Assembly: GCF_963921235.1 (NCBI RefSeq)
Contig: NC_086097.1
Span: 94,242,001-94,306,000 of the forward strand
DNA from: Mobula hypostoma
Taxonomy: Eukaryota
Direction: 5' to 3'
Length of the DNA: 64,000 nt
In this document: positions 27,337 through 29,583 of the stretch, in pieces
How positions within the stretch are numbered: the stretch's first letter is position 1
Layout: the number at the start of each line of letters is the position of its first letter
The notes under the pieces: model-generated
What the model was told of the DNA's origin: nothing
What the model saw: the letters and a program-made list of their open reading frames with translations, nothing else
Databases searched by the model: none
Made by a program: the position numbers and the translations under genes

Positions 27337-27438
27337 TACTAGAGAAGTGATAGGATGATTTGCAGTGGGCGGTAATTGCTGAGAGTGGAGAAAGTTGGGA
27401 AAGAGGGCACTGCCTGGAGAATTGTGCTTAACTGATAG

Positions 27439-28006
27439 TTGTTGTTGTTCGTCCATCGTTGACGTCGATGAGGACCTCAACACCATTATGATGGTGTCGA
27501 GACTAGGGCGTGATTTGGATTTAAGTGAGGGAGAGTTGCGCAGCGTCAGCCTCACTCTCTCTTCCCAATTCCCATCTGGATCCAGTGGCAAGACAAGGGT
27601 TGAGACGGCTGGAAATGGGACTAGGCGCAGTGGATGACCAGGACGTCTTCTGTGTCTTGTCGTGCTCGACACGTTCCACGACGCTTGCAGAGACCGCCTT
27701 CTTGACCATTGGACCTTCCATAGGTCTCGTCCGCTGAATCTGCCGGAGTCTGTCTTCACATGCTGGGATAGACAACTCCCTATCACACTGAGGGTTTGAA
27801 ACCCATCGGCTACCCTCACCTGGTTTAGCCGGCTTGTCGAAGCCGTTGCCCGGGGTGTGGCCGCTGTCGCATGCAAACAGCTTCGGGGAGCCACAAGTGA
27901 GAGCTGAGTGCCAGGTGGGGACCAAAGGTGGACTAACCGCCCTGAAAAGGACGCGACATGTTCCCCCACCAGAGGTGCTACCCCTCCCTGACACCCCATA
28001 CACCCC
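27439..28006 (-). mobile_element. Non-coding retroposon with a 5' HDV-like ribozyme and (CAA)n tail
   Basis: CpG-rich 568-bp insert. Tail GACGAACAACAACAA preceded by a stem-loop. Flanking direct repeat TTAACTGATAG / TTATCTGATAG (27428-27438, 28007-28017). Confidence 0.8.
27815..27997 (-). ncRNA. HDV-like (nested double pseudoknot) self-cleaving ribozyme
   Basis: P1 GGGGTGT/ACACCCC; P2 CTCACTTGT/ACCAGGTGAG; P3 GGC/GCC; L3 starts TCCCCG; P1.1 CC/GG; then GCAAC, P4 CGGCTT-CGAC-AAGCCG, and J4/2 GCTAA with candidate catalytic C at 27828. Confidence 0.8.
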
Positions 28007-29583
28007 TTATCTGATAGAATAAGGAAATGAAGGAAAAGCACAGCACACTTGGTTTATCCTAGCAGAATAACATCCATCCCATTTCTACTTCTTCCATGAA
28101 ACCCCATTCTCTTTACACATGCCTATCAATACCCCTTGGATTTGTTTGCAACTTCCCTATACTGTATTACAGTAGCCAATTAATCTACCAACTTGTCATT
28201 GCAATATGGAAGCACTGCTGAAAGCCTACATAGTCGCAGCATGCACGGACAGCACCGGCTGTGAGGATTGAGCCAAGCTCTTAGGGGCTGTGAGGCAGCA
28301 GAGTATTGCACTTAGTTTTTGTGAAATTGTAGTTGCTGAGTAATGTCCTGGTTTAGAGCAACCAGTGAAGGGTTACATGTGACTGAGATCACTGTGTAAG
28401 GCAGACCTGGGACTATCATTGAAAGGCTAGCTGGTGAGCACTAACTAACCATGGGACACAAGATGATTTAGACAAATGGAAAGTTAATGGTCCAGGAGAC
28501 AGAATTAAACTGATAACGTGGGAACACTTCCTGGTATAAAATATATTCTCATGTCAAAACAGAAACCAGACTGAGCACATCTTTTTAATCTCTAATTAGC
28601 TTTTATTGGTATTCCTTTACTGACTAAAACAGAAACATGCAATATAGGAGTTGGAGGAGGTAATTCAGTTCCTCAAGCCTGCTCTTCCGTTTAATATGAT
28701 CTTCCATCTACAATGGTAGTGAATTCCACACATTCAGTATCCTCTGAGTGAAGAAATCCAGTTGCAAGTCATTTTAACTCTCCTTCACATTCCCTCACCA
28801 AGCTGCCTACCCCTCAGCTTTCTCCATTTCTACGAAGAAGGCAAGTGCAAACTGGAACAACAAAAATTAGTATTCCACCTTGATAAATTACAACCCAATG
28901 GAATGAATCAATTGCAGGTAACCCACAGCCTGTGTAGTTCCTCCAAGCATGCACCCACATGTCTCAGGATTCAGATTCATTTATTTATCACACATACATG
29001 TACATTAGAACATCAAGTGAAATGTGTTGTTTGCGGTAACAACCAACAAAACCTAAGGATGTGCTTGGGACAGCCGGCAAGTGTCTCCACATACTCACAC
29101 GTTCTGTGTTAAATCAGTCTGATGAACCTTTACTGTAATCCTCTTACCTTTACTGTAATCCCCGCCCCTCCCATAGCCTGCTTATTCTGTCTTAGCAACG
29201 AGACCAAAACTGCACACAACACTTTTAACTGTGGTCTCAACAAAGTTAGTCAGAAGGCCGTGTCTGCTTTGTTCTCAAAACTGGTTTCGCACTTTACACT
29301 TATTGATGCATTGTAATTTTTTTTTTTGTTTTTTATAAATTTAACAAGAACATCATTCAGGATGGCCCAAAATTTGAGCAAGAGAAACATGTTAAATTGT
29401 TGCATGGAAATGACAGAATAGTAAGGTATAAACCCTTGCTTATGATGTGTGGGGTAGAAAATGGTACTGCTCAGGCATAGGAATGTGGACGCACAGTGCT
29501 GGTTGGAGTAGAATTTACAATGCGTCTGTCAGCATGTTATAAAGACAAACTTGATACTTCATATGTGGAATTGATTTTTGCAG

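Follow-up and report, generated by a model that had tools for sequence, protein, structure and literature searches.

A predicted HDV-like ribozyme with a hairpin inserted in L3 and a putative third pseudoknot at the head of a LINE-derived retroposon of Mobula hypostoma

The window analysed here is a stretch of 64,000 nucleotides of the Mobula hypostoma genome, and its minus strand carries an element of 568 bp which, judged from its sequence, is a bipartite non-autonomous derivative of a LINE, an element type that is already known. Nucleotides 1-522 of the retroposon correspond to the 5′ UTR of the LINE and are followed by about 45 nt of the LINE 3′ end and by a (CAA)n tail. The element has a TSD and a microsatellite tail and no coding capacity, and its open frame of 249 aa gave no match in Pfam. 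The features of the locus are collected in Table 1.

Table 1. Features of the element and of its predicted ribozyme head, in window positions.
Feature	Position	Strand	Remarks
TSD, 5′ copy	28007..28017	minus	11 bp, one mismatch with the 3′ copy
Non-autonomous bipartite RTE retroposon	27439..28006	minus	568 bp
P1, 5′ strand	28000..28006	minus	7 bp; predicted cut just before the G at 28006, the first base of the element
Second GGGGUGU copy, 5′ strand of the helix closing the J1/2 (P1.2) domain	27987..27997	minus	
J1/2 domain (P1.2), long irregular hairpin	27906..27996	minus	about -45 kcal/mol; compensatory changes between families
P2, 5′ strand	27894..27904	minus	11 bp with 27822-27812; two-sided change in 6/11 pairs
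P3, 5′ strand	27890..27892	minus	pairs with 27861-27859
Canonical L3 heptamer, U-C-C-N-N-G-Y	27883..27889	minus	U20, C21, C22, and G25 equivalents; position 26 is A here
L3 insertion, 21 nt	27862..27882	minus	A, 5-bp stem (27881-27877 with 27867-27863), 9-nt loop, G
Hexamer GCAUGC in the loop of the L3 hairpin; predicted third pseudoknot, 5′ strand	27869..27874	minus	
P1, 3′ strand, and GG of P1.1	27850..27858	minus	
P4 hairpin	27830..27845	minus	
J4/2	27825..27829	minus	C75 equivalent at 27828
P2, 3′ strand	27812..27822	minus	
Linker between P2 and the partner	27765..27810	minus	47-51 nt long across six lineages; two hairpins predicted
GCAUGU, 3′ strand of the predicted third pseudoknot	27758..27763	minus	extendable to 27755 in lineages with a 9-nt loop
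Joint hairpin, between the two LINE-derived parts	27476..27501	minus	11 bp
TSD, 3′ copy	27428..27438	minus	

The source LINE of both ends, 4.1 kb long, is present in the same genome. Identity of its loci to nt 1-522 of the retroposon was 90-94% in 8 of 10, and identity to the last 45 nt was 81-90% in 5 of 10. Endonuclease and reverse transcriptase domains were found in separate broken copies of the LINE, which we take, from its motifs and layout, to belong to the RTE clade. The parent was reached through a metagenome homolog (L154) that continues into an endonuclease reading frame and led to the 4.1-kb copies; a search with DUF6451 returned other RTE families with different ends, which were set aside. 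In full LINE copies the segments of the joint hairpin lie 3.5 kb apart and are able to pair: the pairing is clear in L190 and is made with different letters in L195, and in L189, L193, and L194 these segments are not the best duplex.

A 231-base query gave 2561 first-look candidate copies in the same genome. All of the 30 copies fetched, a set selected at the 5′ end, start at GGGGTGT, the equivalent of window position 28006, and nearly all reach the (CAA)n tail about 565 bases after this start. Contig loose ends in three runs, from three organisms, showed unrelated flanks joining the element at 28006, and a 3′ join at 27446 was listed in the runs of two of these organisms. The copy in the window is decayed, with 10 changes in 300 nt. 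Near-identical sequence was seen in the runs of five organisms (X1-X18), which together with metagenome contigs suggests a wide host range of the element heads. No read fell on the element in runs X21 and X22, and X19 and X20 had 1-2 low-depth contigs on it, which give no evidence of habitat or expression. It was also possible to see a tandem pair (L315 and L316, 576 bases apart on one strand) and a head-to-head junction with an inverted 5′ end (L372).

Three more families (B, E, and G) were gathered from the same genome, the family of the window copy being called A. A metagenome scan in which the L3 hairpin stem was required gave 36 pattern matches, of which 31 were dropped because they had no core and 5 were kept as homologs, representing 3 lineages. 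Head identities among the families and lineages compared went from 85% down to 58%. The metagenome heads (L142, L163, L153, L165, and L154) are 60-77% identical, and one of them adjoins a collagen-like coding sequence. Viral and prokaryote collections yielded 0, 0, 1, and 22 pattern matches, in none of which P2 and J4/2 were present; a protein relative was not found there either. The genome of M. hypostoma holds at least 1987 intact cores, the control with the reversed pattern giving 0; the census of start sites and L3 lengths was made on the first 100 of these exact core matches, all on one contig.

By sequence and covariation, the helices of the head follow the order P1, P1.1, P2, P3, and P4, which is the HDV order of a double pseudoknot. 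In the consensus of the three local families P1, P1.1, P2, P3, and the equivalents of U20, C21, C22, G25, C75, A77, and A78 are intact, and in 7 of 7 rows these seven bases do not vary, at identities that go down to about 60%; the exceptions among the rows are a copy without G1 (L142) and another with a broken P1.1 (L154). When the core and J1/2 were evaluated on 12 real copies, 91% of the cells were paired and 22 of 54 pairs had a two-sided change, a result reached by 0 of 500 shuffles (the shuffle ignores relatedness), with slid controls at 35-50%. A descriptor allowing L3 of up to 40 nt had a single match in the window, none in 200 shuffled windows, and one when the 200-nt head was shuffled 20,000 times. 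The predicted cut falls at the element's 5′ end, 59 of the 100 copies in the census starting at nt 1 and 76 at nt 1-5. The head is thus very probably an HDV-like ribozyme, as predicted from these sequence features.

That there is no ribozyme, and that the head folds into simple long hairpins while a promoter sets the 5′ end, would agree with the minimum-energy fold, which is nested and free of pseudoknots; in the 202-nt head this fold lacks both P3 and the L3 hairpin, with a z of -0.71, as computed by a program that cannot model pseudoknots. Against it, covariation is seen in each of the crossing helices P1, P2, and P4, the bases at the catalytic positions are invariant to about 60% identity, and P1 begins exactly at the first base of the element, so we consider it very unlikely.

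Some minor observations concern the same region. Among the copies that start at nt 1-4, 44 of 74 have T in the position before G1 and 20 have A. HDV cleavage is fastest with U at -1 (PMC1874588), and the target preference of RTE may explain the T instead. A point against the proposed fold is an alternative pairing of U20 with the last G of the insert, which would extend P3. In L153 and L165, four linked changes (element nt 6, 113, 150, and 185) preserve P1 and P2 and also an alternative extension of P3 made by 113 with 150, which in this one lineage hints at a conserved folding intermediate.

The ribozyme predicted here departs from the usual description of the family in the length of L3, which is 7-8 nt in the HDV type but reaches 28 nt in every family-A copy counted (59 of 59) and 26 nt both in family G and in L142, and it would be a variant working like an HDV-type ribozyme. 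L3 is composed of the canonical heptamer and the 21-nt insert. The first-pass annotation had proposed an HDV-like ribozyme with an extra hairpin inside L3, and the core residues, the covariation, and the census agree with it: 96 of the 100 copies have an insert of 21 nt, 4 have 14-19 nt, and none has 0-1 nt, so that the insertion is not private to the window copy. The motifs all lie on the minus strand and the insert is present as it had been written, except that its first A (27883) belongs to the heptamer and is private to this copy, the family having U, the base of HDV position 26. It had also been expected that descriptors with a short L3 would miss the ribozyme, and with L3 limited to 7-8 nt there were indeed 0 matches in the window, while Rfam gave no HDV-family match at E up to 10 and up to 5, in searches run without an ordinary RTE ribozyme as positive control. 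An earlier version of our own descriptor, which required a pyrimidine at position 26, misses the window copy, with its A at that place.

All five pairs of the hairpin stem are intact in 52 of 59 copies of A, 11 of 17 of B, and 11 of 20 of E. Between the consensuses the sole change is U-A to U-G in family G, with no two-sided change; the L3 stem is conserved rather than covarying. In prefix folds the probability of the hairpin drops to 0.02 at 195 nt, as computed by the program that cannot model pseudoknots. In the antigenomic HDV ribozyme the base after the G of L3 is described as bulged out, with weak conservation (PMC3386971), and a graft at this base is plausible for that reason.

GGGGUGU occurs twice in the head, first at nt 1 and again at nt 10, and both copies would pair equally well with the 3′ strand of P1 (-11.8 kcal/mol). 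The first-pass annotation had placed P1 at the second copy and had seen, in the pairing of CCTGGCAC with GTGTCAGG, a strand of J1/2 that competes with P1. This helix is real and has 10 bp, but P1 starts 9 nt upstream, at 28006, in the identical first copy. Considering that the element starts at this first copy, the helix is not a competitor but the base of the P1.2 domain, which hides the duplicate P1 strand. The second copy, which holds GTGTCAGG, binds CCUGGCACUC at -15.3 kcal/mol, the first copy binding it at -6.2, and in prefix folds the second copy is 96-99% paired from 101 nt on. The J1/2 hairpin itself has energies of -36 to -49 kcal/mol across six lineages. Among the J1/2 helices that had been proposed, CGTCCT/AGGGCG is supported, whereas AGGGGT/ACCTCT and GGTGGGG/CCCCACC can be written but have a probability of 0.01 or less in all prefix folds. 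In other lineages the latter does not hold up (0-6 of 7 pairs), and the former falls to 2 of 6 in L142; GGGG/CCCC and GGUGG/CCACC are the supported partners instead. On the 12 copies the two doubted helices were 82% and 77% paired, against 89-94% for four J1/2 helices, a difference which is not decisive alone.

It could still be argued that the J1/2 strand toggles cleavage or moves it to the second GGGGUGU (27997). Duplicated P1 strands shift the cut sites of R2 (PMC3774820). In the census, besides the 59 copies starting at nt 1, there were 17 with a start at nt 2-5, 7 with one at nt 7-10, and 2 with one at nt 12-14. The other 15 start later, and two of these are full heads that carry internal deletions. 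Three of those starting at nt 7-10 have a TSD ending directly before G10, which is above random truncation (about 0.15 per nt). Heads with three copies of GGGGUGU also exist (L017 and L377), as slips of the 9-bp repeat, and repeat slippage explains the starts at nt 7-10 equally well as a second cut site. Taking into account the sequestration of the second copy and the predominance of starts at nt 1-5, we judge a switch of this kind unlikely; the cut at the second GGGGUGU would be a minor path at most, and the folding switch that had been suggested was mostly not borne out, the competing helix being the ordinary closure of a P1.2 domain.

The loop of the L3 hairpin (27874-27869) is complementary to 27763-27758, element nt 244-249, which lie 48 nt past P2 and beyond the region of the first-pass annotation. 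Within nt 1-330 no stretch other than this partner can pair with the loop at 6 of 6 positions in every one of the six lineages. The centres of the two sites change together. In family E the AU at the centre of the loop becomes UA, and UA is mirrored in the partner. The copy L310 has AC in the loop centre and GU in the partner centre, from which a further family was predicted; a search based on L310 found 29 more copies, 90-93% identical, whose consensus is AC/GU with a non-palindromic loop of 7 nt, and this is family G. In 253 copies, after removal of duplicates and of copies gapped at either site, the loop and partner centres were AU/AU in 151 of 160 of A and 19 of 31 of B, UA/UA in 11 of 19 of E, and AC/GU in 34 of 43 of G, the family-G copies from that search having been chosen by likeness to L310 across both sites. 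Many of the exceptions to centre matching fit CpG decay, L154 carries a wobble intermediate, and the one-sided changes in the consensuses give G-U on the sense strand.

The third helix ranks first of the 29 helices of at least 5 bp that can pair in six lineages (nt 1-330), and ties with P2 on two-sided pairs; L142 and L163 are outside this comparison because both contigs end before the partner site. On 15 real copies it was 93% paired, with a covariation of 0.45 against 0.20 in shuffled data (0 of 500 as high), a support that comes from two lineages and three pair changes in a helix found after looking; its count of two-sided pairs was equalled by 32 of 500 shuffles. Matched loop and partner duplexes had energies of -7.6 to -10.4 kcal/mol and mismatched combinations involving family E of -2.8 to -4.7, while A or B loops with the family-G partner still reached -7.2 kcal/mol. 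The layout of the loop (1-2, 6, 0-1) presumably fits an H-type pseudoknot. From these comparisons we hold it highly probable that the loop and its partner form a third helix, and with it a predicted third pseudoknot. The hairpin of the linker that directly precedes the partner (27780-27765) has a loop which could pair over 4-7 bp with GGCR about 25 nt downstream (about 27745-27738, minus strand) in several families; by eye, no two-sided change was found in this pairing.

The loops of A, B, and E are palindromic in their 2+6+1 layout, and CPEB3 ribozymes dimerise through L3 in crystals (bioRxiv 2022.09.22.508989), so that the loop could also be a self-complementary kissing loop joining two element RNAs. 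The idea, first suggested by the A and B loops, was dropped once family G was found: the loops of family G and of L142 and L163, the latter lineage having the hexamer AACCUG, are non-palindromic and that of family G retains its downstream match, which makes dimerisation highly improbable.

The reading that we prefer overall, and regard as likely on these sequence comparisons, is that the head of the RTE-derived retroposon is an HDV-like ribozyme that would free the RNA at its first base, with the loop of the L3 hairpin engaged in a third pseudoknot. In the mechanism we propose, the J1/2 hairpin would form first and bury the second GGGGUGU, so that P1 could be made by the first copy only. P3, the L3 hairpin, P1, P4, and P2 would then complete the double pseudoknot, with the hairpin exiting after G25, at the base that is bulged in HDV, and the loop would dock on its partner after about 250 nt. 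The predicted cut at G1 would release the element RNA from read-through transcripts, a role that has been proposed for 5′ ribozymes of RTE and related elements (PMC6765202). The P1.2 domain would set the register and pinch P1 to P2; P1.2 domains activate HDV-like ribozymes (PMC4908430). The third helix would join the ribozyme to the downstream 5′ UTR as one compact domain. By a narrow balance of plausibility we see in it a brace, which would keep the hairpin off the active site, lock the 5′ domain, aid cleavage, and protect the uncapped RNA. R2 templates are improved when the ribozyme at their 5′ end folds stably, possibly because decay is blocked (PMC11331408).

The main rival to a brace is that the third helix acts as a timer or off-switch, by which cleavage would be permitted, or stopped, only when transcription has covered about 250 nt. 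The partner is the last part to be synthesised, 47-51 nt beyond P2, the helix can be extended to 9 bp with opening of the closing pair of the stem, and the L1Tc ribozyme is inhibited by downstream sequence (PMC3185411). However, family G, with its 7-nt loop, can form 6 bp only, so invasion of the stem is not conserved, and we consider a timer possible but rather doubtful. About as tentative is a wider proposal, by which these heads would belong to a widespread and unseen class of triple-pseudoknot HDV-like ribozymes in animal RTEs, where docking would tie cleavage to the progress of transcription and offer an allosteric handle.

Ribozyme-headed RTEs, P1.2 domains, and bipartite elements are already known. 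HDV-like ribozymes head RTE, R2, R4, Ingi/L1Tc, and baggins retrotransposons (PMC5786205, PMC6765202). The present head resembles those described in its position at the first base, its double-pseudoknot core, and the expected release from a read-through transcript, and differs from them in the 28-nt L3 with a hairpin and in the predicted third pseudoknot to the downstream 5′ UTR. With drz-Agam-2-1 it shares a stable J1/2 helix next to short linkers and also a long P2, of 11 bp in the present head and 12 bp in drz-Agam-2-1, but here the 5′ strand of P1.2 duplicates the P1 strand, and the cited account of drz-Agam-2-1 describes no L3 insert (PMC4908430). R2 ribozymes, as reported in PMC3774820, also have a 5′ duplication that gives two possible P1 strands and a large J1/2; here the duplicate is kept to about 60% identity and serves as a helix strand, and the P1.1/P3/L3 block of R2 is a conserved stretch of 15 nt, unlike the inserted L3. 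RTESINE, MAR4_MD, and Bov-A, as described in PMC5786205, are likewise made of a LINE 5′ UTR and 3′ end, with a microsatellite tail, TSDs, and no ORF, and at the level of element type there is no difference from them. The crystals of the CPEB3 ribozyme also have L3-borne bases pairing outside the core, but there the pairing is made in trans by a 4-nt palindrome within an L3 of 7 nt and disrupts P1.1 (bioRxiv 2022.09.22.508989), whereas here the bases stand on an inserted hairpin and the pairing is predicted in cis with a covarying partner.

What is new here is the covarying downstream partner of the L3 loop, which points to a third pseudoknot. No L3 insertion or third pseudoknot was found in the literature searched on HDV-like ribozymes, although the supplementary alignments of earlier surveys could already contain the variant. 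Natural HDV-like ribozymes, in the accounts available to us, vary in J1/2 and P4 and keep L3, which belongs to the active site, short. A conserved L3 hairpin with a covarying partner would extend the fold to three pseudoknots and mark a position of the core that tolerates grafts. Searches with short-L3 descriptors would miss the whole group, which in this one genome has at least 1987 intact cores. The natural variants of the families are ready pairs for swap and rescue, and with them the effect of downstream RNA on cleavage and stability becomes directly testable.

Conserved heads were also observed in other RTE families. In one with a GAA tail (L247-L263, 17 copies), which had no match to the HDV descriptor or in Rfam, the 5′ end is sharp and conserved over about 100 nt, where hairpins and a J4/2-like CUAA occur; this is possibly another type of ribozyme. 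A third RTE family (L113, L116, and L123), without descriptor match, is 3.25 kb long, ends in a GAC tail, and has another conserved head.
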